A DNA stretch of 64,000 bases from Phormidesmis sp. (GTDB taxonomy: Bacteria > Cyanobacteriota > Cyanobacteriia > Leptolyngbyales > Leptolyngbyaceae), in NCBI GenBank assembly GCA_965248535.1, contig CBDFJR010000002.1, positions 1,056,001-1,120,000 on the forward strand. The letters run 5' to 3'. Shown here piece by piece: positions 50,645 to 64,000 of the stretch. Positions within the stretch are counted from its first letter, which is position 1. Each line of letters opens with the position of its first letter. The notes beneath the pieces were generated by a model. That model ran no database searches. It was not told the origin of the DNA and saw only the letters and a program-made list of their open reading frames with translations. The position numbers were made by a program, and so were the translations under genes.

Positions 50645-51760
50645 TCAGGATTTCTGCTTTCGAGCCGTGATATCTCTAACAACTCCTTCATAAAACAGCA
50701 AGTCTCCCCGCGCATCATGCACCTTGCGGACTGTCTCAGCGATCCAGATAACGCTGCCATCTTTGCGATAGACCTGCGAATCAAAATCAGAGACGGTTTC
50801 CTGCTGTTCTAAACAGGCAACAAACTCCTCTCGTCGCTGCGGTTGCACATAAAGCTGTTGAGCAATGTTATTAATCGTTTGGATCAAATCGTCAGGAGAC
50901 GCATATCCATAAATTCGAGCTAAGGCTGGGTTTGCATTCAAATACATGCCATCACGAGTGGTTTGAAAGATGCCGTCGATAGCGTTCTCAAAGATGCTGT
51001 GATAGTTTGCTTCTGCGTTTCTACAGTCCTGAATACTTTGCTCTAACCTAATATTTTGCTCTTCTAATCTTTTTTGCAGCATCCGAATATTTAGCTGATG
51101 CTCAACTCGTGCTAGCACCTCTTCCATTTGAAACGGTTTAGGAATGTAGTCCGTTCCCCCCACTTCAAAAGCTTTTACTTTGTCGAGCGAGTTATTGAGG
51201 GTGCTGATAAAAATGACTGGAATCTCACGTGTTAAAGTGTTGGCTTTAAGACGACCACAGACTTGATAGCCATCTAGACCTGGCATCATGATGTCGAGCA
51301 AAATCAGGTCGGGTTTTAGTTCGATCGCGGTAGGCAAGGCCGCGATGCTACTGGTTGCATGACCCACTTCATAGCCGTGCTTAGACAATGCAGCCGAAAG
51401 AAGACGCACATTTAGGCAAGCATCATCCACAATCAAGATCGTGCCACGATGAGTAGATTCGCGCAGCTTAAACCCTAATAGCCAAAAGATAGTTTGTTCG
51501 GCATTTCTCAGTTCTTGACGATGTTTAGCTCCCTGGGTGGTTAAAGCTTGATGAAGAACTGCCAAATGCTCTAGCCGCTCGATCGCTGCATTCACTTTCT
51601 GGTCTTCTAAATACAAGCTTTCGATCACTGCATTTAAATCGCTCAAAGAATCTGCCTTGAGTCCAGCTCCTGTGGCAATTACAGAGCTTATTTGATCAAG
51701 GTTTTGGTGCAACAGTTTTCGGATTTGATAGCTTGTAGCCAGCGAAAGTTGTTTCCGCAT
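50645..51760 (-). CDS. REC-PAS/PAC protein without output domain
   Basis: LLDIMMPGLDG, DYIPKPF, IFENAIDGIFQ, RKDGSVIWI, RDIT then stop. Confidence 0.88.
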   Translation of the reverse strand: MRKQLSLATSYQIRKLLHQNLDQISSVIATGAGLKADSLSDLNAVIESLYLEDQKVNAAIERLEHLAVLHQALTTQGAKHRQELRNAEQTIFWLLGFKLRESTHRGTILIVDDACLNVRLLSAALSKHGYEVGHATSSIAALPTAIELKPDLILLDIMMPGLDGYQVCGRLKANTLTREIPVIFISTLNNSLDKVKAFEVGGTDYIPKPFQMEEVLARVEHQLNIRMLQKRLEEQNIRLEQSIQDCRNAEANYHSIFENAIDGIFQTTRDGMYLNANPALARIYGYASPDDLIQTINNIAQQLYVQPQRREEFVACLEQQETVSDFDSQVYRKDGSVIWIAETVRKVHDARGDLLFYEGVVRDITARKQKS

Positions 51761-51821
51761 AAGCTGAATAAGTATTAATTTAAAGTCTCAATTGAGTGTT
51801 CCCGTGAGCAAAATAAACGCA

Positions 51822-52238
51822 TTAAATTCTGTCAGAGCTTAAGATTTGCTGAACCGCGGACTTCAGGTGGTCATATTCCAATTTGAGCAATAAAAACTTC
51901 TCGTTACAGGTTTCGGTAGATTCTAGCTGCACACTGATTTCTAGATCTTGACAAGCGCGAGAAAATCGAATCGCACCAAAAGCAGAACTACTGAACTTTA
52001 AACTGCTTGCAAGTTTCCGAGCTTCATCCACTTCACCAAGGTCGATCGCGTGCCCAATAGCCTGTAAAAGACTAGAAAATTCGGCAAGATAATGATCTGT
52101 AAATTCAGACAAAACTTTTGTCGAGTTTTCACCGCTAACGTGTTTCAAAAACCTCAAGACATTGGGAACCAAGATGAGTAAATCTAAGTGCGGAGGGCTG
52201 ACTACAGGTTTAGAATTGCCGTCTAAAGAATCCAACAT
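51822..52238 (-). CDS. Hpt-like protein lacking the phospho-His
   Basis: ARKLASSLKFSSSAFGA..FS..C..LE versus canonical AHxLKGSS. Confidence 0.75.
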   Translation of the reverse strand: MLDSLDGNSKPVVSPPHLDLLILVPNVLRFLKHVSGENSTKVLSEFTDHYLAEFSSLLQAIGHAIDLGEVDEARKLASSLKFSSSAFGAIRFSRACQDLEISVQLESTETCNEKFLLLKLEYDHLKSAVQQILSSDRI

Positions 52239-52286: not shown

Positions 52287-55200
52287 TTAATCAACTTTTG
52301 CACGGAATCGGAAGAAGCCGTAAGAGGATGCCGGGACGCTATTCACCGACTGGACGGCTCCAACTTGCAGATGCACTGCACCACGACTGTTGTTAGTGCC
52401 AGTGCAACTGCTGGGAAACGTCGTTGGGAAAAAGCCGCTTCCTGCACCAGAACCTGGGCCATCAGTGATCGGAGTTGTTGTGCCATTAAAGTTAAGCTGA
52501 ATTGAGCCACTCACAAAGGTTTGCTTGTTAGGCACAAAGTCACAAAGGTCAACCCCGCCTGCCGTCATTGCACCATCTGACAGAAAGTAAATCGTGTATT
52601 CAACTTCATCACTAGGAGCAGGTGCACCGGGAGTCGGGGTGGGCACTTGAGCCGTATTGATTGCGCCTAAAAGATAGCTGCTGCTGCCACCAGGCCAATT
52701 TACCCCTGGGTTGTCGTTGTTGTCGGTGGCTAAATTGTTATACCCGGCGATCGCTGTGACTGTTCCGCTACCATTCTTTTTGATGCCAGTAATCCGTTTA
52801 ACTAACCGTAATCGTGGGCCGATGTTAGTCAGGGTGGGATCACCCACAGCAGGGGTGCCGGGATCGTTACTGAGCAGATTGGCGAAGCCTGCACTAGTAA
52901 TCATTGCTTGGTTGGAAAGCTGTGTCGTGCCGCTAGGAGTCACAGGATCTTTAATGGTAACCCGGAACTTAACCGTGGTCGTGTTGTTCGCGGCAGCAGT
53001 TCCTAGAGTCCCTCCGGCTGTGCCGTTGGCACCTGTTCCTAGCCGGAACACAACCTGCGAAGCGCTCGCCTCAGCCTGATCGTCTGCACTCGCATCTGTT
53101 TTGGTACCAGCATTGGCTCCGGCGGAGATCTGCAATGAGCCTGGAAGATAAATAGTGTTGGTAGGAATAGGATCGGTCAGTACCACGCTATTAACTGAAG
53201 TCGTAGTGCTCGTGTTTTTAACAACTAGGGTGTACTCTAGAATATCTCCAGGGGTTGCCACCTGACTAGCAAGCGGAGTGGCTCCACCCGATCCGTCACT
53301 ATCCACCGCGACCACTGCTGTTTTATCGACTTGCAGAGGGCTAGCGGGCGCGATCGTCACGTCTTCTGCCTTGTTAGCTGCCACGGTGCCATCGTAGCTG
53401 GAGGTCAATGCGGCAGCGTTCACATTGACCGTTGTCACATTTGCGCTAGCATTGGTATATTTGGCATCGGCTGTCGCACTGTTGTTATAGGTTGCAGAAG
53501 CGGTGCCGCTCGCGATTGTGACCGTAAAGGTAACAGAAACACTTCCGCCAGGTGGAATCGTAAACCCTGACCAAGAGGGCTTAGAAGTAGTTCCTGCGGT
53601 TGTCACAGAAGCGGGCCCTGTGGCCCCCCCTGAATAGACTGGGGTGACTGTACCTGAACTATTGGTGAACCCAGTGGGCAATCCTGCGTCAGCAATGACG
53701 ACATTCTGAGCGGTGGGCCGTTTTGCCCCGATCGGGTTACTAGCGGTAATCGTGTAAGTCGCTGTCCCTGGGGCAGCCATTGGGCCGGGAGTTGACGTTG
53801 ATTTAGTTGCAGCGATCGTGCATCCTGCTCCTGAAATGCTAGTCACTGCGTCTGTAGCTGTCGAGTTAACCGGGCCCGCTACTCCATTGCCTGCGGTCGC
53901 ACCACCAAAATTCGTCGAGTCATTCAGCGTCGTCCCTGATTGCCCCCCATTCAGAACAGTTGTTGCACCGGGACTGTAGTAAACTACCCCCCCAGCACCG
54001 CCGCCGCCGGGACCGTGGGGAGCGCCACCGCCAGTGTTCGTCCCCCCCTTGCCGCCATTGGCACTAACGGTAAGTCCGGCAGTGCTACCCGTTTGTGAAA
54101 TAACCAGAACACTTCCGCCCGCGCCGCCGCCGCCACTGCCATCGTTATCAGGAATCAACGCTGGGGTGGCACCATTGGCACTAATAGTCCCTGCGGTCGC
54201 GATCGTGCCTGTCCGCAGCAAGACGATACCACCCCCAGGCGCACCGCTACTGGCTAACCCGTTACCTGGGGTGCCAGTTCCGTTATTCGTATTACCTGCG
54301 CCTCCACCACCCCCCAGAACTAGGCGGCTAGCAGACGCTGGAAAAGGGGCACCACCATCGCCACCGAGTGGTAGCGCACTATTCCAGGTTCTACCACCTT
54401 TACCGCCCAGTCCTCCATTACCGCCGCCCGCGCCGCCCGCGTTTTCGTCGTTAGCAGAGGGATTTCCATCCACAGCCCCGCCCCCTGCGTTTCCAGGTGC
54501 GCCGCGGCCATAGCTGCCGTTTGGGTAACCTTCTGTTGCATTGGTGATTAATGTGTTTGCGGTAGGATCGAACAAATATTTGGGCGTACCTGCCGTTCCT
54601 TCACCCTTGGAACCGTTGTTGGCACGAGTAGAAACAGAAACGACATCTGCATTACTTCCAGCACCCCCTCCTAACTGAACACCACCACCGCCTCGAAAGC
54701 CTTGACCATTGACGTTGATTTGTCCCCCGCTGAAGGAGATCGCACCTGCAACGTCCATTGCGACTACCCCTCCCGTGGTTCCATCCCAGGGGATCGCTGA
54801 TATGGTGCCGCTAACCGTCAAATTGCCATACTGCGGCACCCGAATCACCTGAAACCGCCTTTGTCCTTGACTACTGCCCCCTGTATTGTTAGCAGTAACG
54901 TAGCTGTTAACCAGAGGTGAACTAATATTGATAGTACCACCACTGGCTGCAACAGCGTTAGTAGCCACCACATACTCAAAGTTCCCAGCAGTAAAATTAG
55001 AGGCGAGGTTGCCATTGACGGTGCCGTTAGCAGCGTAGGGAGCCGCAGTTGATCCATTGTTAGTAGAACTGCCATCCCCGTAGGCGGCAGTGTTCGTCGC
55101 GTCAATGTCTGCTCCCTGCATTTGGATAACTAGCAGCAAGTCGCCGGGTTTGATTGAGGTTGAAAATCCTTTTGCAGTGCCTACAGCAATGCTGGTCGTC

Positions 55201-55466
55201 CCGGCAGCAGCACTGGTTCCGGTTGCACTGGGAAAATAGGTATTGACCTGCCCTGTAGGTGCTGTATAGTTGCCGTCTTGACCTGGGACGGCACAAATTG
55301 CATTGCCACTGCCATCTACTTTATCGGCGCTAGCAGGCGAAGTAAAAAGCCAGAGATTTTGAGACGACAGTAACACAGTAGCAGCCAACAGTGGACTGAT
55401 TCTGCGAATTGACCGCGACCAGAATCGTGAATGTTTAAGGTGAAGAGCAGTTAAATTACGTTTCAT
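52287..55466 (-). CDS. large secreted Gly-rich adhesin-like protein with three DUF11-type domains (putative tip subunit)
   Basis: signal peptide ending SPASA; Gly-rich N-region; ATKS..IADAGLP..YNNSA, VDKT..LTDPIP..LSNQA, LVKR..LCDFVP..FRAKVD*. Confidence 0.85.
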   Translation of the reverse strand: MKRNLTALHLKHSRFWSRSIRRISPLLAATVLLSSQNLWLFTSPASADKVDGSGNAICAVPGQDGNYTAPTGQVNTYFPSATGTSAAAGTTSIAVGTAKGFSTSIKPGDLLLVIQMQGADIDATNTAAYGDGSSTNNGSTAAPYAANGTVNGNLASNFTAGNFEYVVATNAVAASGGTINISSPLVNSYVTANNTGGSSQGQRRFQVIRVPQYGNLTVSGTISAIPWDGTTGGVVAMDVAGAISFSGGQINVNGQGFRGGGGVQLGGGAGSNADVVSVSTRANNGSKGEGTAGTPKYLFDPTANTLITNATEGYPNGSYGRGAPGNAGGGAVDGNPSANDENAGGAGGGNGGLGGKGGRTWNSALPLGGDGGAPFPASASRLVLGGGGGAGNTNNGTGTPGNGLASSGAPGGGIVLLRTGTIATAGTISANGATPALIPDNDGSGGGGAGGSVLVISQTGSTAGLTVSANGGKGGTNTGGGAPHGPGGGGAGGVVYYSPGATTVLNGGQSGTTLNDSTNFGGATAGNGVAGPVNSTATDAVTSISGAGCTIAATKSTSTPGPMAAPGTATYTITASNPIGAKRPTAQNVVIADAGLPTGFTNSSGTVTPVYSGGATGPASVTTAGTTSKPSWSGFTIPPGGSVSVTFTVTIASGTASATYNNSATADAKYTNASANVTTVNVNAAALTSSYDGTVAANKAEDVTIAPASPLQVDKTAVVAVDSDGSGGATPLASQVATPGDILEYTLVVKNTSTTTSVNSVVLTDPIPTNTIYLPGSLQISAGANAGTKTDASADDQAEASASQVVFRLGTGANGTAGGTLGTAAANNTTTVKFRVTIKDPVTPSGTTQLSNQAMITSAGFANLLSNDPGTPAVGDPTLTNIGPRLRLVKRITGIKKNGSGTVTAIAGYNNLATDNNDNPGVNWPGGSSSYLLGAINTAQVPTPTPGAPAPSDEVEYTIYFLSDGAMTAGGVDLCDFVPNKQTFVSGSIQLNFNGTTTPITDGPGSGAGSGFFPTTFPSSCTGTNNSRGAVHLQVGAVQSVNSVPASSYGFFRFRAKVD

Positions 55467-58400
55467 GGAGTTACACCTTCAGCAACGGGGGAACTTGAGG
55501 GGGCGATCGTGACAGCAGCAGATTCTGGTTTAGATTTGCGATCGGAGGAGGTCGGTTTTTGTAGCCCAAACCCGCTGAATAGCTCATTGAGTTTGATGGT
55601 TAGACCTAAGTAAGGCCCGCCTGCCGATCGAGAGCCGTCGAAGTCACGATCGTTGGCTCGACCAAAGCTATAACCTGCTGCTAGTCGAAGATTGGGGGTG
55701 AGATAATAGCCCGCTTCGACCACAAATCCGGTTTCGCGATATCCAGCACTGGGTTGAGCAATCCACCGAGCTTCTCCGACAATATCCCAGCTATAGCCAA
55801 AGCGATAAGTGGCGCGGAGTTGGGCTAAAGACACCGTGCTGGTGCCGACTAAATCACTAGAGAGCGTCGTCGAGCTGTGGCGCAGCGCATATTTGCCGTA
55901 AAATTCCCAGCGCCAATTAGGAGCATAGATGCCTTCGATCGCTAGCGTGTGGTCTTCTGAACCTGTGCCACTGCCGAACAGAATCGTATCAGGAATCGTT
56001 GAGGGGTTCTTGCGATATTCATAGCGAAACAGGGCATTGAAGCGATCGTCGTTGGGATCTCGGTAGGCAAGTCCGACTTTGAGACTGGAGGTATCACCCA
56101 ACCCTGTCAGTGTTTGGTTAGCAGCGTTAGCCTGCTGATAGCGCACCAGCGCTGTGAGCGAGGGTGAAATTTTGCCCGTTGCGGCAGCCGAAATTACCGT
56201 GTTGCTGCCGCTTGATGAACTGCGGTGTTCATATCGGGCGCTTGCTTGGAAGTCTTTGCTTCCCGTATATTCCAGCCCAACACTGTAGCTATCGCCGCCC
56301 TGCAAACCGAGAGAAGAAGCACTCTGTCCGACTGCAAAGGGTTGAGCAAATTGAACCCCCGCCCCGGTGCGGCCAAAGAACCCGCCGAACAGATGTTCAT
56401 AAGCTAGATCCATTCTCAGTCCGGGGGAGATTGTCCAACCCTGGTTAACCCCAATCGCGCCTTGAGTTGTCCAGCTATCGGCTCCACCCACGATGCCATA
56501 ACGGGCGTGTAGAGTCGTGTCTGTCCCAAATTTGTATTCTCCGCGCAGATCTAAATTGGTAATAGACTGTCCAGCTAGCTGCCCACGCGTATAAAACTGT
56601 TGACTCAAACCGAGGTTGACTCCAGGCATAATTGCCCAATCTAGTCCTAGCCCGGTGCGATCGCTATAGACAGAATCAACACTTGAAGAAAGCGTCGTTT
56701 CATTCTGCGCTAGAAAGGTGAGGCTATTGCTCAGAGGCACCGTGAAGCGCGATCTCAATTGATTGGAGGAACCGCTTGAATCGGGTGATAGTCGATCTTG
56801 ACGATCGCGATGGAGTAAATCGACGTTCAGGTCAGCCTTTCCAATTCGCTGCTGCACCCCGACCGCGATCGTGGTCAGCGAGTTATCGACCCGACTACCC
56901 GGAATGGCTTCAGTCCGAGGAGCAAAGAGGTCTCGTAACGTGTCAATCTGTCGAGGTGCCGTGCCGACGTTCTTTTCGCGGTCATATTGCACTCTCAGTT
57001 TGGTGCTGTCGGAAAGGATGCCTACGACCTCTGCCCCATAGCGCGTTTGTCCAGGCACAAAACTAACGGTGGCATCATTAGCAAATCCTGTATCGGTCTT
57101 GCGATAATAGCCTCGTGCCAGAATACCTGTTGTGATCTCGGCGTTGGCTTCTAACCGATAGGCAGAGCCGCTTACCGAGCCGAGAATATCCGATCGATTG
57201 TTAGAACGAGCATATTCAGCAACAATGCTGCCTTTGCCAAACGAGTAGAGAGCATCCGCACCGTACAGTTCAAAGTTTCGCGTTCCCTGATTTTCTTTGA
57301 GATAGGTGGCACCAATCCAGCTTTCTGTGCCTGGGGTGTCAGACAGATGATAGAGCGCTCGACCTGCATAGATATTGCTCTTGCTTCCCTGCTGAGTCTC
57401 GTATTGATAGGTCGTAACAATTCGACGAACTAACACCTGCCCAGTGAAATCGACATCCGTTCGCAAAATCGGTTGCCGGAAAAGGATTGTGCCCCGATCG
57501 TAATCAATCTCATAATCAGTACCGCGATTTAACTGCTTGCGCTCCAAAACAGTTCCAGGGCGGTTTAATTCCTCAACTTCTAAGAAGACATTTTCACTGC
57601 CGCCAATCACTAACCGTCGCGAGAGGAAGTAATAGCCGCTCGTGCCATCTGGCGCTAGCGTATCGCGCTGAAACCCCTGCACATTGTTGCCATAAAAGCC
57701 ACTGAGTTGGAGATTACCAACATTGTAGTTAGCCTTGAACCCATGAAGTTGCCGAGTCGTTGCCGTAAACTGCTGAGATCGGGTGGCAAATTCTTTAGTG
57801 TCATAGTCACCCCACATGAAATAGTCGATGCCATTCGAGCTAGGCGATGTGCGCTCTAGTTTGAGGAAAACGCTATCCGTCGAGGGAGTCAGAACCTCTG
57901 TTTTAGAACTATCGCCATAGACTGGATAGTTTTGATCGCAGAATTGCTGTTCACGAAACAGTCGCGAGGTGCCATCACAGGTTTGATTGAGAGCATGATC
58001 ACTGTTGTAGGCACCTGTTACAAGCCAATCGCCCACTTTTCCCGTGGCAAACACTGCGCCGTGCGTCGCTAGCCCGTAATTATTTTTGCCATTAGGCGGC
58101 AAAAAGTCTCGAAAGCTGCGATAGAAGTCTGTGCCACCCTTACCCAGGCGAAAATCGATCGAACCTGTCACCAGCGAAGAACGCAAATCGGTTTCAAACT
58201 GGACTTGAGTAAACGCATCTAAATCCTCAGCCTTTGCCTGAATTCGCACTGTTTGAGCTTGGATGCCAGATCGTAGCGTTGCCTTAAATTCGCCCTGGCT
58301 AGCTTTGACTTGATAGCCTGGCTGATCAGGGTTGAAGTCCGGTTCGACAAATTCGCCCGCCGTGGGCTTGAGGGTCACGATCGTATCGCGATTTGAGCGG

Positions 58401-59017
58401 TTGCCGTTAGCATCCAACAACTCACCCAAAACCGTCACTGTCGATCGACCATCAGCCCGAACTCGCGTTTCAGCCGTGCGAAGGGTGATTTGCTTTGCCG
58501 TTCCGCGGACTTGTACCTGCACCGATGCCGTTTGGGTCACTTGACCGTTGACGACGATTTGAGCCACGATCGTGTTGTCGCCATCCTGAAGCGGAACACC
58601 ATACCAGGTCTGAGTCGTTTGCTTCTTAGTTTTATCTTTTTCAGTCCGTCCGACGAGAGAAACACTCACCGATTTACCGTTTACCTGTAGCTCCACCTGA
58701 CTATCTAGAGGAAACCGAAGCACCACCGTTGCCGCCGGGACATCAACCACCGCTTTAGGCGTGGGTGAGACGATCGTGATACCTGCCGATGGATTTGTTG
58801 GTAAAGGTGTTACTGCCGGTTGGGAGACAGGTTTTGATTCTGGTTTAACAGTCGGTTGCCTTGGTGAAACTGATTGCACGATCGGAGTTGTTTCCGTTTC
58901 TGTGATCGCTGCCATCACGCCTCTGATCGGCATCAGCAATGCAAAACTGATACTTTCAGCAATCAGTCCTAAACCCAGTAGACAAGCAGCTATGGAATTT
59001 CGAGATTTCATGTTCAT
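55463..59017 (-). CDS. large outer-membrane beta-barrel protein with N-terminal Ig-like domains (putative usher/anchor)
   Basis: signal peptide; Ig-like ADGRSTV region; YPVYGDSS, DYEIDYDRG; long run of amphipathic beta strands ending YLGLTIKL. Confidence 0.85.
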   Translation of the reverse strand: MNMKSRNSIAACLLGLGLIAESISFALLMPIRGVMAAITETETTPIVQSVSPRQPTVKPESKPVSQPAVTPLPTNPSAGITIVSPTPKAVVDVPAATVVLRFPLDSQVELQVNGKSVSVSLVGRTEKDKTKKQTTQTWYGVPLQDGDNTIVAQIVVNGQVTQTASVQVQVRGTAKQITLRTAETRVRADGRSTVTVLGELLDANGNRSNRDTIVTLKPTAGEFVEPDFNPDQPGYQVKASQGEFKATLRSGIQAQTVRIQAKAEDLDAFTQVQFETDLRSSLVTGSIDFRLGKGGTDFYRSFRDFLPPNGKNNYGLATHGAVFATGKVGDWLVTGAYNSDHALNQTCDGTSRLFREQQFCDQNYPVYGDSSKTEVLTPSTDSVFLKLERTSPSSNGIDYFMWGDYDTKEFATRSQQFTATTRQLHGFKANYNVGNLQLSGFYGNNVQGFQRDTLAPDGTSGYYFLSRRLVIGGSENVFLEVEELNRPGTVLERKQLNRGTDYEIDYDRGTILFRQPILRTDVDFTGQVLVRRIVTTYQYETQQGSKSNIYAGRALYHLSDTPGTESWIGATYLKENQGTRNFELYGADALYSFGKGSIVAEYARSNNRSDILGSVSGSAYRLEANAEITTGILARGYYRKTDTGFANDATVSFVPGQTRYGAEVVGILSDSTKLRVQYDREKNVGTAPRQIDTLRDLFAPRTEAIPGSRVDNSLTTIAVGVQQRIGKADLNVDLLHRDRQDRLSPDSSGSSNQLRSRFTVPLSNSLTFLAQNETTLSSSVDSVYSDRTGLGLDWAIMPGVNLGLSQQFYTRGQLAGQSITNLDLRGEYKFGTDTTLHARYGIVGGADSWTTQGAIGVNQGWTISPGLRMDLAYEHLFGGFFGRTGAGVQFAQPFAVGQSASSLGLQGGDSYSVGLEYTGSKDFQASARYEHRSSSSGSNTVISAAATGKISPSLTALVRYQQANAANQTLTGLGDTSSLKVGLAYRDPNDDRFNALFRYEYRKNPSTIPDTILFGSGTGSEDHTLAIEGIYAPNWRWEFYGKYALRHSSTTLSSDLVGTSTVSLAQLRATYRFGYSWDIVGEARWIAQPSAGYRETGFVVEAGYYLTPNLRLAAGYSFGRANDRDFDGSRSAGGPYLGLTIKLNELFSGFGLQKPTSSDRKSKPESAAVTIAPSSSPVAEGVTP

Positions 59018-60465
59018 GGTTTGCCTGCTTCTGAAACGGCGGGCGTGACAGCAAAATTCATTCGCACCAGTCCATTGGGTTCGAGGTGCACCAGTCGAGA
59101 TTGGCTATTGCGTTCTTTGAAATAGAGATTGGGGGCAAAGGTGTAGCCGGGAACACTGCTGAGATCGAGGACTCCAGTTCGACTGCCTGGCAGGACATTG
59201 GCGATCGAGAACAGCCCATTTGGATCGGTGGTGATGCGAGTGCCATCATCTAAAAGCACGACTGCATTTGGAATTCCAGGTTCTCCAGGCTGCTGTTCCC
59301 CATCGAAATTTTTGTCGTCAAATACGCGACCGATGATGGTTCCACAATCCGATACAATGCCGGGACGAATCCGTAGCCGATATTTAGACGGCCCATCTCG
59401 AAGAATGGCGTTAGTATCGATGCGATGAACGCTAACGCTAGCCAGATTTTCACCCGTGCCCCTCACCGAATCAGGACTGAGTTGTACAGCATAAGCAACG
59501 TTTAAGACTCCATCAGGAGGAATGCTGCCGTCAAACCTAAACGTGATGGCAGAACCACTATGAGTGGTTGCGATCGCGACCACATTTCCTCCTAACTCAC
59601 CACGCACGCTCTTAGGCAAAAAGCTGAACCCTAAAGGCATTACATCCGCAATCTCAATCTGATTAGCCGCAACCGAGTTGAGATTTCGCACTGAGAGCCG
59701 ATAAATCACTGTATCGCCAGGCTCGGCAGAAGCCCGATCGGCCGTTTTGGTAATTTGAACAGGTTGAGCCGGGCCTACACAAATCGGCTGATCGAGCAAA
59801 CTCAGTGCAGAGAGCACTAATCCACTTCCGGCAGCATCATTAATAGCAACCGTTGTTGTGAAGGAAGCTGGGTCGGCATCTAAACCGATTCCTCGCCCGT
59901 CTAACGCAGTTGCAGTGTAGGAAATTGTTTTAGCAACATCATCGCGTGCAGTAATGACAAGCCGAATTTGTCGTTGGCTATAGCGTCTGGCACTCGCGGG
60001 CGGGTTCACAATGAGAATGTATCGCCTGCCAACGTCAATCTGCCCTGCGCTACGGTTCAAGAAAAAGTTATAGCCACCCTTAGGTTCGTCATTTGCCAAA
60101 AAGAAGGGATTGCTGTTTTGCACATTGGGAGACACACCCGTAAAACTGGTGCCAGCCCCAGTTCTTGGCAGAGGAAGCAGAGCCAGTGGTGTATCATCTT
60201 GGCTAGCTTGATAGAGAGCGACGCTGAATCCTGCATAGTCAGGCAAGACTTCTCCACCGCAGCCACGAATGCGCCCAAACGGGTCAACGATCTCTTGCTT
60301 CAGTGCATTTGTAATGCTGTCAAACGTATTTTTCTCAGCATCTTCAAATGTGTAGGAAGCCGTGTTAAGAATCGCGCTTTTTGCTGTAGCGGCTGAAGGC
60401 TGAAATGAAATGCTGGCAAGAAGCAACGCCGCCAACAAGCGACATCGTTTGCGGTGAGAAATCAT
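59014..60465 (-). CDS. secreted DUF11 + SdrD-B-like protein (putative base adaptor)
   Basis: signal peptide, ILNTASYTF, VQITKTADR..PGDTVIY..IADVMPLG..ENLA, GRVFDDKNFDGEQQPGEPGIP. Confidence 0.88.
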   Translation of the reverse strand: MISHRKRCRLLAALLLASISFQPSAATAKSAILNTASYTFEDAEKNTFDSITNALKQEIVDPFGRIRGCGGEVLPDYAGFSVALYQASQDDTPLALLPLPRTGAGTSFTGVSPNVQNSNPFFLANDEPKGGYNFFLNRSAGQIDVGRRYILIVNPPASARRYSQRQIRLVITARDDVAKTISYTATALDGRGIGLDADPASFTTTVAINDAAGSGLVLSALSLLDQPICVGPAQPVQITKTADRASAEPGDTVIYRLSVRNLNSVAANQIEIADVMPLGFSFLPKSVRGELGGNVVAIATTHSGSAITFRFDGSIPPDGVLNVAYAVQLSPDSVRGTGENLASVSVHRIDTNAILRDGPSKYRLRIRPGIVSDCGTIIGRVFDDKNFDGEQQPGEPGIPNAVVLLDDGTRITTDPNGLFSIANVLPGSRTGVLDLSSVPGYTFAPNLYFKERNSQSRLVHLEPNGLVRMNFAVTPAVSEAGKP

Positions 60466-60564
60466 GGAAGCTAACTCAGGTAGAAAACTAGTGACAGGCT
60501 TAAAGTTGTGGGATTGTCAACTCCACCCAGGAGATTGAGAAGTCATCAGAAAGTTTGAAGGTTT

Positions 60565-60599
60565 GTCTGTAGGAACGGTCTATGACTGTCCCTACAGAC
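60565..60599. repeat. GTAG-type REP-like palindrome inside the operon
   Basis: GTCTGTAGGAACGGTC-TAT-GACTGTCCCTACAGAC. Confidence 0.75.
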
Positions 60600-60616
60600 T
60601 TGGCTGTTTTGAGACG

Positions 60617-61180
60617 TTAACGGATTTTGACTTGGTAAGCAGCACTCACACTTGCTTCAGGTTGCAGCGCTTGGCTGGTTTCCCACCGCACATGAGTGTA
60701 AGCCGCCGCCGGAGCGGGACGTTCTTCAACTTTGCCGTCTGGAAGCGTCACTTTCACGGTCGGGTGCGCCACAAACGTTTTGCCTTGGTCAAGACTGTAG
60801 GTGACAGTGATTCCCTGAGCGATCGTGGCAGAATCCAGTTGATAGCTCGTTCCTTGAGGAATGGGTTGAGTAATCGCAACGTTTTTCGCGTCACGACTGC
60901 CTTCGTTTTTACCCGTCACCGTGAACCGAATCACATCCCCTTGTTTTGCCTTGACTTTGCCGTCGATCGCTTGCCAGTTAGTTACCTCTTTACCCTGCTG
61001 GTTTTTTGTTACCACCTGCTGATCTGCCACCAGGTAGAGATTGACTTTGGGCTGACGCAGAACATTTTGAGCAATCGAAGACCCCGCGTTGAAAATCTGA
61101 GCGATCGCAGGTGAACCGTTGATCGGCAACGCTGAAACAACTAGTGCTGCGCTGACACTTAATAACCAATGTTTTTTCAT
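60617..61180 (-). CDS. small secreted single DUF11-like domain protein (putative chaperone/cap)
   Basis: MKKHWLL signal; QGDVIRFTV..KN.G..A.NVAITQPIPQGT.Y; YTHVRW; ends YQVKIR. Confidence 0.88.
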   Translation of the reverse strand: MKKHWLLSVSAALVVSALPINGSPAIAQIFNAGSSIAQNVLRQPKVNLYLVADQQVVTKNQQGKEVTNWQAIDGKVKAKQGDVIRFTVTGKNEGSRDAKNVAITQPIPQGTSYQLDSATIAQGITVTYSLDQGKTFVAHPTVKVTLPDGKVEERPAPAAAYTHVRWETSQALQPEASVSAAYQVKIR

Positions 61181-61267
61181 GATCGATGTTTGTTGTGAAT
61201 GCGGTGGAAACAAAATGTGTGGGGTGATTGCTGCTCCCAATGATTAGAAACAGCAATCGTTGAACCA

Positions 61268-63811
61268 TTACTTGATCTTTCGCTGGAAGATGAACGTGCC
61301 ACCCGCAGAGCCAGGAGCAACCGATGTGACGGTGTCTTTATACTCCTGGATGTCAGTTGGAGTGCCGCTGGTTGTCACCGTGATAGCTCCACCCGCGTCA
61401 GTTGCAGAACCTGTCGCTGTGCCAGGGAACTTCGGATCAAGCGTTGGGCCAAACCAAGTGTTAGTACCCGTGCTGCCGTTCTCAGTAATCACCAAGCTGT
61501 TAGCAGGCAAGGTGACATTGTTAGTTCCACCGCTGGTTGAGATGTTTTTGTAGGTGATGCGATACTCAATCACCCTGCCAGGCGAGGCAGCCGCGCTCAG
61601 ATCAGCTTGTACCTTGGTGAAGGTGCCAGCAGCCCCTGTGACTGGCGTGACCCCATCGACTTCCAGGATTCGGGCTTCTTTATCCAACGTCAGATAGTTG
61701 GTGTAGAGGCGATCGATCGTAGTGTTGCTCGGATCACCCGTTGGGCTGCCATCCCCATTGACATCAACAAACGCGGTTACGGGAACTGGGAACCCTTGGA
61801 ACTGAGGTGCCGCAGGAAGATCAACTGTCACCTGATAATCTGCTGTCGCTCCGGCTGCGATCGTCAGTTTGACCGGGCTGGTGGCAGTTGGCGTAACTCC
61901 ACCCGTTCCAGCAGTGCCTGAGACGAAAGCAAAGCCGCCTGCTGAGGTGTAGTTATAAGTTGCACTGCCCGACACTGGGTTAGTGATCGTCACTTTTGTG
62001 TTGTCTAGCAGGGCAGTTGTCGTTGTTGGAGGAGTGGGTAATAGCGAGATGACCTGAGACCCACCGCTGGTGTTTTGAGCAGTGTTGTTAAAGGTGAACG
62101 GAGGTGTCTGAGCATCGGTCAACGGGGTTGTAGGCGATAGACCCACAGGAGTCACGATCGACTTGTTGGTGTAGTCATCATTGGTATCAGTTGGGCCCAC
62201 GGCAGCAGGCTTTGTCTGTGGCCCGTTTAGAGGAGTCGCCGCGATCGTATACACGGTGTCTTCACCACCTGCGGTCTTAGTACCTCCACCATCTACACCT
62301 GTGTTGGTGTTGGTAGTGTTCGTCGGATCAGTTCCCGTTCCTGGGTCAGTTCCATCATTTCCAGGGTTAGCCACCCCGTCGCTGATGCCACCAGCGTTTG
62401 TAGCTGTGCCGCCTGATCCTGGATCGGGGTTGTTTCCAGCTAAACCGTCGTTGGCGGTTTGGTCACCCGATTCATCATAGACAATCTGGGTTGAGGTTCC
62501 TGGTGTAATCGTGCCGGGTTGAGACTGACCAAAGACTTGAGCCAAGTTTGCAACTTGTCCGCCTCCAAACCCACTAACGGGGGTGAGGTCGAATTGGAAG
62601 CCAGAAACCGTTGTGCCAGTGCCCGCTGAACCTTTAGAAATTCCAGCAGAAGTGGTGTCTTTGATAAAACCAATTCGAGTGATTGCCGGGCCTGAGGTAG
62701 GACGAGTGGTGCTCCACGCTGCGCCCAAAGCACTGGTGGTCAGAGGTGTTTGAGAATAAACTACTTGCCAGCCAGCAGGAGCGGTGATGGTGTTGGTCGC
62801 GCCAAACTGTAAGCCAACCGGAACCGCGTCACTGACTAAGACATAAGGGGTAGCGGTGCTGCTGTTGACGTTCAGGCTGGTGCCATAGAGATCCGATGTG
62901 ACAAACCCAGCAGGAGGGCTTGAGGGATTTTCAACTCGCAGCGCTAGCTTATAGGTCAGAATGTCATCCGTTAAGATGTTGGGTGTAGAGTTGTTGCTAT
63001 AGCTGCTCACCGCTTTGAGCACGGCTGCAAACGATTGCAGTCTAGCAGCAACCACGATCGGGGTGCTGGTTGCCATTGCTTCTCGTACACCGTTGCTGGG
63101 CGCGGTTGCATTGGTTTCGCCACCGACTCCGTTTCCGTTGTCCACTGTGTAGACATCATTTGCATTGCTGCCACTTACCGCCCGATCGAGGTTTTGTCCA
63201 TCAACAGGGGTAGTGTTTCCTAGCGACACTTTTAGGGTGCTGGTTGCGGTTGCACTGGCTAAGACTTTAATAGGCACCCGAATGGTAACTGTTCCGGTGG
63301 TGCCTGTGCCTGGATTGGCAACCAATGACCCTGAGTTTGCGCCTGTTGTCCCTAGCAAGTTGCCAGTGGTGTCTCCAGCGTTGGGCACGTTGACCGCCGT
63401 TCCTAGGGTCGTGCCATTGACTGCGACAATTTGAATCTGCCCATTTTGCGAGAAGGCAGTTGTGTTAGAAAGAGTAGCCGTGCCTGGGATAAAGAATTGA
63501 GTCGGATCGTTGCCCGTGTTGGTGATAACGAAGTCTACAAATAAGGTGTCGCCTGCGTTGGGGTTGGAAACACTAGGAGTTTGAGCGGTCAGCGCTACGC
63601 CTGCCACTTCTAAAACGTCGATCGTGACTTCATTAGAGGTAGTGGTGTAGTTAGTGGTGCCATCGGTAAAGGTGCCAGTCGCCGTGTTTTTAATCGAGGT
63701 TCCGGCAGCAGTGCCGTTTGCCCAGACAGGAGAGACGAGTTGGAAAGCGCTTCCGATCGCAAGGGTCGCTGCTAGCAGGTGTCGCAAATGAGAGTGTGAA
63801 CAAGTTTTCAT
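61268..63811 (-). CDS. secreted Thr/Gly-rich beta-repeat protein with DUF11-type domains (putative major fibre subunit)
   Basis: signal ending SPVWA; GTAAGTSIKNTATGTF; ITNTGND; C-terminal LTLDKEA..PGRVIEYRITYKN..LVITENG..FIFQRKIK*. Confidence 0.88.
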   Translation of the reverse strand: MKTCSHSHLRHLLAATLAIGSAFQLVSPVWANGTAAGTSIKNTATGTFTDGTTNYTTTSNEVTIDVLEVAGVALTAQTPSVSNPNAGDTLFVDFVITNTGNDPTQFFIPGTATLSNTTAFSQNGQIQIVAVNGTTLGTAVNVPNAGDTTGNLLGTTGANSGSLVANPGTGTTGTVTIRVPIKVLASATATSTLKVSLGNTTPVDGQNLDRAVSGSNANDVYTVDNGNGVGGETNATAPSNGVREAMATSTPIVVAARLQSFAAVLKAVSSYSNNSTPNILTDDILTYKLALRVENPSSPPAGFVTSDLYGTSLNVNSSTATPYVLVSDAVPVGLQFGATNTITAPAGWQVVYSQTPLTTSALGAAWSTTRPTSGPAITRIGFIKDTTSAGISKGSAGTGTTVSGFQFDLTPVSGFGGGQVANLAQVFGQSQPGTITPGTSTQIVYDESGDQTANDGLAGNNPDPGSGGTATNAGGISDGVANPGNDGTDPGTGTDPTNTTNTNTGVDGGGTKTAGGEDTVYTIAATPLNGPQTKPAAVGPTDTNDDYTNKSIVTPVGLSPTTPLTDAQTPPFTFNNTAQNTSGGSQVISLLPTPPTTTTALLDNTKVTITNPVSGSATYNYTSAGGFAFVSGTAGTGGVTPTATSPVKLTIAAGATADYQVTVDLPAAPQFQGFPVPVTAFVDVNGDGSPTGDPSNTTIDRLYTNYLTLDKEARILEVDGVTPVTGAAGTFTKVQADLSAAASPGRVIEYRITYKNISTSGGTNNVTLPANSLVITENGSTGTNTWFGPTLDPKFPGTATGSATDAGGAITVTTSGTPTDIQEYKDTVTSVAPGSAGGTFIFQRKIK

Positions 63812-64000
63812 GTCGGGTAGCAAGAGTATTGACAATCAAAAGAGTGAATTTGTAATCAGTGATGAGATTGCTGCTTTAGTCGTCGTGCAATGAGAGTTAA
63901 GAATCTAATGGAAGATAGAGCGCTTCGAGAGAACAGATCCAGACGCAATAAAGGAGGGTCAATAGAACAAGCTAGTCTTGTTAAAATCACAGGCTCCTAA

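Follow-up and report, generated by a model that had tools for sequence, protein, structure and literature searches.

In chaperone-usher pili (Fim, Pap, Csu), an incomplete immunoglobulin (Ig)-like subunit is made whole by an extension at the N-terminus of the next subunit, the chain has an acceptor-only tip and a donor-only terminator, an outer-membrane (OM) barrel serves as its platform, and the genes are all found in a single operon together with a small exported helper. In the engineered SpyTag/SpyCatcher pair, made by splitting CnaB2, a truncated isopeptide domain is filled in by a strand that holds one of the bond partners, and the reaction is spontaneous. Here we describe an operon at 52287-63811 on the minus strand of a 64,000-nucleotide stretch (the window, meaning the whole stretch analysed) of Phormidesmis sp., a filamentous cyanobacterium with a genome of 5.03 Mb that is 99.76% complete. 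The operon comprises five co-oriented genes, labelled g855, g187, g483, g1184 and g1059, whose open reading frames (ORFs) encode 847, 187, 483, 1184 and 1059 aa, respectively. Its predicted working recalls chaperone-usher pili and two fibres with covalent joints. For BsaA of C. perfringens (TasA family), the authors describe a "donor-strand exchange and lock", in which an N-terminal segment enters the sheet of the next monomer and donor N35 bonds acceptor K74 with E56 as the catalyst, a bond supported by mutants (bioRxiv 10.1101/2024.11.04.621531). For the archaeal thread Saci_0406 of Sulfolobus acidocaldarius, donor-strand complementation is reported together with an inter-subunit isopeptide bond, which links Asn57 of one subunit (n) to the amino group at the N-terminus of subunit n+2, and a putative cap encoded adjacent to the subunit (PMC9715654).

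We consider it probable that the operon encodes a surface fibre, or a long adhesin stalk, built from split DUF11/CnaA-type domains. From the in silico results, namely donor and acceptor motifs and their positions, one complex, synteny and anchor-barrel fusions, we infer polymerisation, a covalent bond, an assembly order, export through the barrel, a surface location and a role for g187. The acceptor proteins (g855, g1059 and g187) would each end in an Ig-like domain devoid of its last two strands, and the donors (g855 and g483) would carry exactly those two strands at their mature N-termini. Insertion of the donor would complete the acceptor fold and set the first-strand lysine (Lys711 in g855) and an acid (Glu777; Asp in the tip type) beside a donor asparagine, where an autocatalytic Lys-Asn isopeptide bond could lock the joint. 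The chain would run from a g1059 tip (acceptor only) through n copies of g855 (donor and acceptor) to a g483 anchor (donor only), which would stay at the g1184 barrel, and the fibre would exit the cell through that barrel. In the least tested part of this scheme, g187 would most likely hold the donor strands reversibly in the periplasm until hand-over.

More tentatively, the operon may represent an undescribed pilus class of two-membrane bacteria, that is, a sortase-free, ATP-free and self-locking fibre of split CnaA/DUF11 domains with a giant non-usher barrel, fused to the anchor and SLH-tied to the cell wall in some lineages, and distributed over several phyla. No description of the operon, the barrel or split-DUF11 fibres was found in the full-text literature, a search whose coverage leaves out most subscription journals. 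If true, this reading would add an assembly pathway to the short list of those for pili and adhesins of two-membrane bacteria, would mean that nature builds enzyme-free extracellular covalent polymers from split isopeptide domains, which is of interest for protein engineering, and would correct a widespread mis-annotation of the barrel as a "TonB-dependent receptor". For cyanobacteria, it would provide testable candidates for adhesion, mat or biofilm formation, or gliding-associated surface fibrils; in gliding filamentous species such as this one, it could be what makes up the surface fibrils to which no protein has been assigned.

The operon resembles chaperone-usher pili, BsaA and archaeal threads in working and is a member of none. 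Judging from alignments and a structural model, the donor/acceptor logic of chaperone-usher pili appears to have a one-to-one counterpart here, as a resemblance in working and not as membership. Unlike in those pili, the genome has neither an usher (PF00577; no match in the five proteins or the whole genome, E. coli control matched) nor a PapD-like chaperone (PF00345, PapD_N; no match in the whole genome, E. coli and D. radiodurans controls matched). The subunits are multi-domain CnaA/DUF11 proteins of ~850 aa instead of pilins of ~150 aa, two strands would be donated instead of one, and a covalent lock is suggested by the Lys/acid/Asn triad. Its barrel, of much greater size, has no sequence relationship to theirs, and the candidate helper is acceptor-like and not strand-donating. 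With BsaA, the operon shares the roles predicted for Asn42 or Asn60 (donor), Lys711 and Glu777, but BsaA has a TasA-type fold, comes from a Gram-positive bacterium with no outer membrane or barrel, and is a SipW-processed homopolymer. The TasA/camelysin family is not among the Pfam matches of the five proteins, which are DUF11-type, DUF7925, SdrD_B and Ig-like only. Saci_0406 differs in being archaeal, with no outer membrane, an unrelated subunit family and a bond that is not Lys-Asn.

With the sortase pili (SpaA, BcpA, RrgB), the operon shares strings of CnaA/CnaB-type domains and, as predicted, covalent fibres, and the best fold matches of g855 are of this kind (Z 8.5-9.9); however, it has no sortase and no C-terminal LPxTG, and its joint would be autocatalytic via a split domain. 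Compared with SpyTag/SpyCatcher, which is man-made and derived from CnaB, it would be a natural, CnaA-type and polymerising counterpart. Chaperone-usher pili, BsaA and archaeal threads are precedents for the principle; the machinery, the subunit family and their combination are what is new. DUF7925 and DUF11 ("CLIPPER", PF01345) are CnaA-like, with intramolecular Lys-Asn isopeptide bonds predicted or shown (PMC12617251). The operon's domains belong to the same superfamily and follow the same triad logic, as in the internal DUF11 of g483; the bonds in that report lie within one domain of one chain, whereas here the terminal domains are truncated and the lysine and acid and the asparagine would be on separate polypeptides. 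Two further candidates were rejected as relatives: the Microcystis CT pilus, which has a small unrelated pilin (PMC12397347), and the haloarchaeal tafi, for which the match was to DUF1102 and not DUF11 and which are analogues at most (PMC11821415).

Predicted donor and acceptor ends of the five proteins

The five co-oriented genes and two ATGA stop/start overlaps reported in the initial annotation are present, at 59014-59017 and 55463-55466, and the overlaps connect the last three genes, g483, g1184 and g1059. Because ~1.4 kb upstream of g855 contains no ORF of at least 90 aa, we take g855 as the first gene. As judged by eye, a basic n-region at the start of all five translations leads into a hydrophobic stretch and then an A-x-A-like site, which agrees with the signal peptides originally assigned to them. 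None of the five has a convincing lipobox or a C-terminal LPxTG. A single internal LPRTG occurs in g483 (window 60154-60168, about residues 99-104); since the genome has no sortase and the motif is not C-terminal, it is probably a chance occurrence. The lack of a sortase or PapD-like gene, first noted for the window, thus extends to the whole genome: sortase (PF04203) gave no match there, and the B. subtilis, C. glutamicum and L. lactis controls were matched.

The candidate polymerising subunit, g855 (61268..63811, minus strand), consists of a leader, donor strands, CnaA-like Ig domains, one of them DUF7925, and an acceptor domain at its C-terminus. It measures 847 aa from its ATG, and the previously given length of 855 aa holds only from an alternative TTG start at 63835. 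In the Pfam scan it carries PF25546 (DUF7925, a CnaA-like isopeptide-domain family; 62450..63031, minus strand; 190.5 bits, 3.3e-56, profile positions 1-183 of 185), not DUF11 proper. Among its 470 homologues, PF25546 was found in 120 of the 120 matches listed. The AlphaFold2 model of g855 has a mean pLDDT of 82.5, and its domains at residues 67-256 and 260-525 resemble the Gram-positive pilins BcpA, SpaD, EbpB and PitA (Z 8.5-9.9) and also match TTHA1873 (Z 10.2).

Directly after the leader, g855 and g483 share a donor motif, x-I-x-N-T-A-T-x-x-Y/F-x-D ... S-N-x-V-x-V, identified in the alignments. In g855 it forms a segment of two strands (residues 38-69; 63605..63700, minus strand) with the invariant Asn42 and Asn60, and in g483 it occupies residues 28-62 (window 60280-60384). 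The segment is kept in all 13 full-length g855-like proteins, the short g483 paralogues open with the same motif, and the donor profiles of g855 and g483 are homologous (hhalign probability 93.6). Within 28 g855-family sequences, I40, N42, A44, S59 and N60 are invariant, and the set N42, N60, K711 and E777 is retained in all 28 down to 36% identity; the first donor Asn (the Asn42 equivalent) is also conserved in 14 of 15 g483-like proteins. A donor hidden Markov model (HMM) run against the 328 ORFs of the fetched loci matched solely the N-termini of the g855 and g483 families, and most of these matches are training sequences, with three exceptions, two of them g855-like fragments (L020 and L027) and one the short anchor in L022. 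The placement of donor halves at the N-termini of g483 and g855 only, as originally proposed, is thereby borne out by alignments and HMM. The donor segment resembles the closing part of a DUF11/CnaA domain.

The acceptor regions, comprising residues 705-847 of g855 (61271..61699, minus strand; DUF11-like, with the invariant Lys711 and Glu777 in the alignments and the complex model), residues 885-1059 of g1059 (window 52290-52814) and the whole of g187, carry the first-strand and acid motifs and stop before the Asn strand; in g187 the acid is a Gln. For the terminal domains of g855, g1059 and g187, Lys, acid and Asn are thus not found within the domain of one chain. The counterexample is the internal DUF11 of the g483 family, in which Lys, Asp and Asn are each conserved in 19 of 19 sequences, all within one domain and chain, in the order first-strand Lys, x-D-x-L-P acid, G-x-N-x-A strand and last strand. 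The acceptor halves had been assigned to the C-termini of g855 and g1059, where we also find them, and g187 proves to be of acceptor type as well.

The g483 protein (59014..60465, minus strand), a candidate anchor or terminator, consists of a leader, the donor strands, a beta-sandwich region, a complete DUF11 (~236-365; PF01345, 37.6 bits against a cut-off of 24.6) and an SdrD_B-like domain (380-446; 26.9 bits, under the cut-off of 29.7), and has no acceptor domain. The small exported DUF11-like protein g187 (60617..61180, minus strand; 187 aa from its ATG, the ORF extending to 61240) matches PF01345 with 32.5 bits (cut-off 24.6; 1.2e-07) over profile positions 12-84 of 114. Aligned to the complete DUF11 of the g483 family (hhalign probability 97.2), its last residues reach position 98 of 121, and the complete domain continues beyond that end point into the Asn-bearing strand. 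With a Gln at the catalytic-acid position, and in this genus also no Lys, g187 is, on sequence grounds, a candidate reversible cap or chaperone for the donor strands.

The g1059 protein (52287..55466, minus strand), a candidate tip adhesin, comprises a leader, a Gly-rich AgmC_N-like region (62-498; NF047640, 3.9e-29, under its cut-off), DUF11-type repeats (TIGR01451 in NCBIfam, 54.3 bits, cut-off 24, in two stretches) and the C-terminal acceptor domain; it has no donor segment, and the Pfam scan returned no family for it. In a 15-sequence alignment, the C-terminal domain of g1059-type proteins is conserved, with invariant LVKRIT and CD motifs, and the remainder is variable. This domain matches DUF11 profile positions 8-54 (E 0.0027) and aligns to the complete DUF11 of the g483 family with an hhalign probability of 89. 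Across the Gly-rich part of the gene (window 53000-55000), G+C climbs to 0.55-0.57, and the Pro-rich 159-aa ORF on the opposite strand (54034-54513, plus) is most likely a mirror of the Gly codons and not a gene.

Proteins that vary except for a conserved C-terminal domain recall the way in which secretion tags work. This resemblance speaks for a different arrangement, in which the proteins are independent secreted adhesins with folds that are complete or completed in cis, the barrel is a translocon or porin, and the C-terminal domain, as in type 9 secretion (T9SS), serves as a signal for export or retention. We regard this arrangement as distinctly unlikely: the donor-only proteins (g483 and the fused giants described below) and the acceptor-only proteins (g1059 and g187) could not be satisfied in cis, and no T9SS C-terminal-domain model is among the NCBIfam matches listed.

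The predicted joint between g855 subunits

The complex prediction covered one donor/acceptor pair, the N-terminus and the C-terminal domain of g855, modelled as residues 31-72 with residues 690-847 using slices of a 28-row alignment. Three runs gave ipSAE values of 0.84, 0.87 and 0.86 (median 0.86), compared with 0.00 for the best of three controls, with at least 94% of the contacts in common and a partner pLDDT of 78-81. Of 157 solved complexes, 116 attain the ipSAE mark used, as do 2 of 215 mismatched pairs; these rates apply only roughly here because a custom alignment was used. Modelling of the donor/acceptor pairs, which had been suggested as a check on the fibre, was thus positive for the g855 self pair, the pair that was run.

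In the model, strand 768-777, with Glu777 on it, is the partner of donor residues 38-51, and the first strand (705-713), with Lys711 on it, is that of donor residues 55-69; the modelled contacts of Lys711 are Ser59, Asn60 and Val62. CnaA-like domains have their bond between the first strand and the penultimate one, which lie in opposing sheets (PMC12617251). Because of this topology, we consider Lys711-Asn42 the likelier bond pair; the predicted pairing fits a CnaA domain and points to Asn42, with Asn60 also invariant.

The monomer model of g855 also speaks for the independent-adhesin arrangement. The C-terminal domain is confident on its own (pLDDT 84-94) and the N-terminal strands reach 60-65. 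Against this stands the complex model, which puts the donor strands into the open edge of the domain, beside the invariant Lys711 and Glu777. Our preferred reading remains a joint formed between chains by donor-strand insertion.

The g1184 barrel and the locus in other genomes

The g1184 protein (55463..59017, minus strand; 1184 aa) consists of a leader, two Ig-like domains (residues ~79-276, window 58193-58780) and a very large predicted OM beta-barrel (residues about 280-1142, window 55592-58180). Its AlphaFold2 model shows the two Ig domains and ~30 long strands over residues 282-1142, and its Foldseek and VIA-align matches are generic OM barrels (SlpA, MtrB, LptD, SprA, BtuB and porins); ushers are absent among the matches listed in these fold searches, for which the query model has a pLDDT of 59. 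A search of the barrel profile against Protein Data Bank (PDB) sequences returned the Ig part only, with matches to GH2 enzymes (E 0.0084). The Ig domains match those of intimin/invasin and GH2 proteins (Z 12-15), and residues 175-273 give a weak Big_1/Invasin_D3-like match (31 bits against a cut-off of 33) that lies N-terminal to the barrel. Inverse autotransporters of the intimin/invasin type have a barrel followed by a C-terminal Big_1 passenger; in g1184 the Ig domain precedes the barrel, and no intimin-barrel family was matched in Pfam.

Many g1184 homologues are annotated by NCBI as "TonB-dependent receptor", and the neighbour clusters of the barrel in the protein atlas are either unnamed or bear that name only. 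Together with VIA-align matches of part of the barrel to BtuB (Z 14.6) and Cir (Z 14.2), these names would fit a nutrient-uptake system made up of a TonB-dependent receptor and accessory surface proteins. We judge this highly improbable. The barrel part (280-1184) has no Pfam family at E<=5, including Plug (PF07715) and TonB_dep_Rec (PF00593), and the public label is therefore unsupported; whole g1184 does not match Plug or TonB_dep_Rec at E<=0.01. Moreover, porins, LptD, MtrB and SprA match about equally well, and the barrel spans ~860 residues, as opposed to ~550-650 in the matched receptors.

The barrel was found in 31 of 41 relatives searched, including all 24 genomes of the same family, and in an even sample of the phylum it occurs in 44 of 301 genomes (E<=1e-10), with DUF7925 in 32 of 301. 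Around barrel homologues, 18 loci were fetched from other genomes, the choice being made by the barrel. The order g855-like, g187-like, g483-like, barrel is kept in 14 of them, and the arrangement is therefore not due to chance; a g483-like gene lies immediately upstream of the barrel gene in all 18, and a downstream gene matching the g1059 C-terminal domain is present in 17 (the exception is L021). The synteny expected for such an operon is thus found, in separate and, in other lineages and phyla, in fused form.

Some variation in gene content was observed. Two of the 14 loci, L020 and L027, carry the g855-like gene broken up into two or three ORFs (G074, G135 and G323 are listed with them), and stop codons interrupt the barrel match in some relatives, so that decay of the system seems to be under way in part of the genomes. 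In L014, two g187-like genes flank the g855-like gene (L014:1694-2347 and L014:5081-5668). In the remaining 4 of the 18 loci, which lack a g855-like gene, the set consists only of the barrel, a short anchor with a donor segment and an adhesin with an acceptor domain. The same genome also holds a second locus ~95 kb away (C2:1204066-1214571) that lacks g855-like and g187-like genes; it encodes an anchor of 335 aa with a donor segment, a barrel of 1220 aa (55% identical), a 707-aa protein that appears by eye to be a beta-helix with an OmpA-type peptidoglycan-binding C-terminus, and a 1238-aa adhesin with SdrD_B-like repeats and an acceptor C-terminal domain.

These shorter loci are relevant to whether g855 polymerises at all. 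The four loci and the second locus of this genome, all of them lacking a g855-like gene, have one anchor that bears a donor and one adhesin that bears an acceptor; at its simplest, the system is thus a joint that does not polymerise. By extension, the full operon could specify a defined multi-piece adhesin and no polymer, with one anchor, one g855 stalk and one tip held at the barrel, a possibility that we consider unlikely. The modelled pair is the g855 self pair (0.86 vs 0.00), and g187-like genes co-occur strictly with g855-like genes, being present in 14 of the 14 loci that have one and in 0 of the 4 that do not, which fits a need to control a self-polymerising subunit. In addition, the hairpin after g855 (see below) could raise its dosage. 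We therefore retain a polymeric fibre as the more probable product of the full operon.

In another class of the phylum the same gene set recurs at 25-32% identity, and in two genomes of that class the anchor is fused to the barrel, in an ORF of 2744 aa and in another of at least 2438 aa. The 2744-aa ORF contains a donor, DUF11, CarboxypepD_reg/SdrD_B, three SLH domains, FlgD_ig and the barrel, and is matched by both g483 (E 4e-19) and g1184 (E 1e-40). These fusions tie adaptor and barrel together, in agreement with the pairing of the two in the initial annotation. The SLH and OmpA-like modules found in some loci suggest that the fibre base is tied to the cell wall.

The system extends beyond cyanobacteria. 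An exhaustive search put the barrel family at 2124 cluster representatives for E<=1e-3, 1566 for E<=1e-10 and 290 for E<=1e-30. At 27-34% identity, the matches listed include many giants of 1600-4000 aa that have the barrel at their C-terminal end; those with a name belong to Smithella and Candidatus Wallbacteria and bear the annotation of DUF11 proteins. Of 19 giants examined, 10 have a strict donor motif inside their first 120 residues and, as judged by eye, 5 more carry a variant.

Several observations weigh against the proposed fibre. At the level of the domains, the C-terminal domain of g855 aligns only weakly to the DUF11 profile (hhalign probability 25) and has no Pfam match even at E<=10. 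Comparison of the donor profiles with the end of the complete DUF11 by hhalign is not significant (E 0.14 and 0.6), so their equivalence rests on the reading of the motif and the complex model. The second donor Asn occurs in only about half of the g483-like donors, and one distant subunit (L030) has no Lys. At the level of the models, the g1184 prediction is weak (mean pLDDT 59.2, pTM 0.37), a limit on any estimate of pore size or of whether folded domains could pass. The complex output consists of contacts and not side-chain geometry, which bears on the bond and on whether Asn42 or Asn60 takes part in it. The predictor's familiarity with the intact fold may raise the score of a cut isopeptide domain, and the N-terminus of g855 could fill its own last domain in cis. 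Finally, the SLH and OmpA-like modules would allow the fibre base, or even the whole structure, to lie in the periplasm. The donor/acceptor reading nevertheless passed every computational test that was run, with nothing contradicting it, and is to that extent supported.

Transcription signals and neighbouring genes

A 15-bp hairpin (61226..61258, minus strand) lies directly 3' of the g855 stop codon. In RNA folding it reaches -20.7 kcal/mol (z -3.11), and none of 200 shuffles was equally stable. It may act as a partial terminator or mRNA stabiliser that sets an excess of the subunit. A stem-loop was also folded directly 3' of the g187 stop codon (window 60565-60599, minus strand), and the stem-loops after the first and second genes may be attenuators or stabilisers that fix the ratio of subunit to machinery. 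The promoter and terminator scan returned fewer sites than were obtained in shuffles.

On the 3' side of the operon, on the same strand, 50645-52238 encodes a 138-aa Hpt-domain protein and a 371-aa response regulator with a PAS domain. Membership of this pair in the operon was rejected because, in the same-genus locus L011, the regulator is on the opposite strand. The pair starts 48 bases past the operon end, and the link is not conserved.

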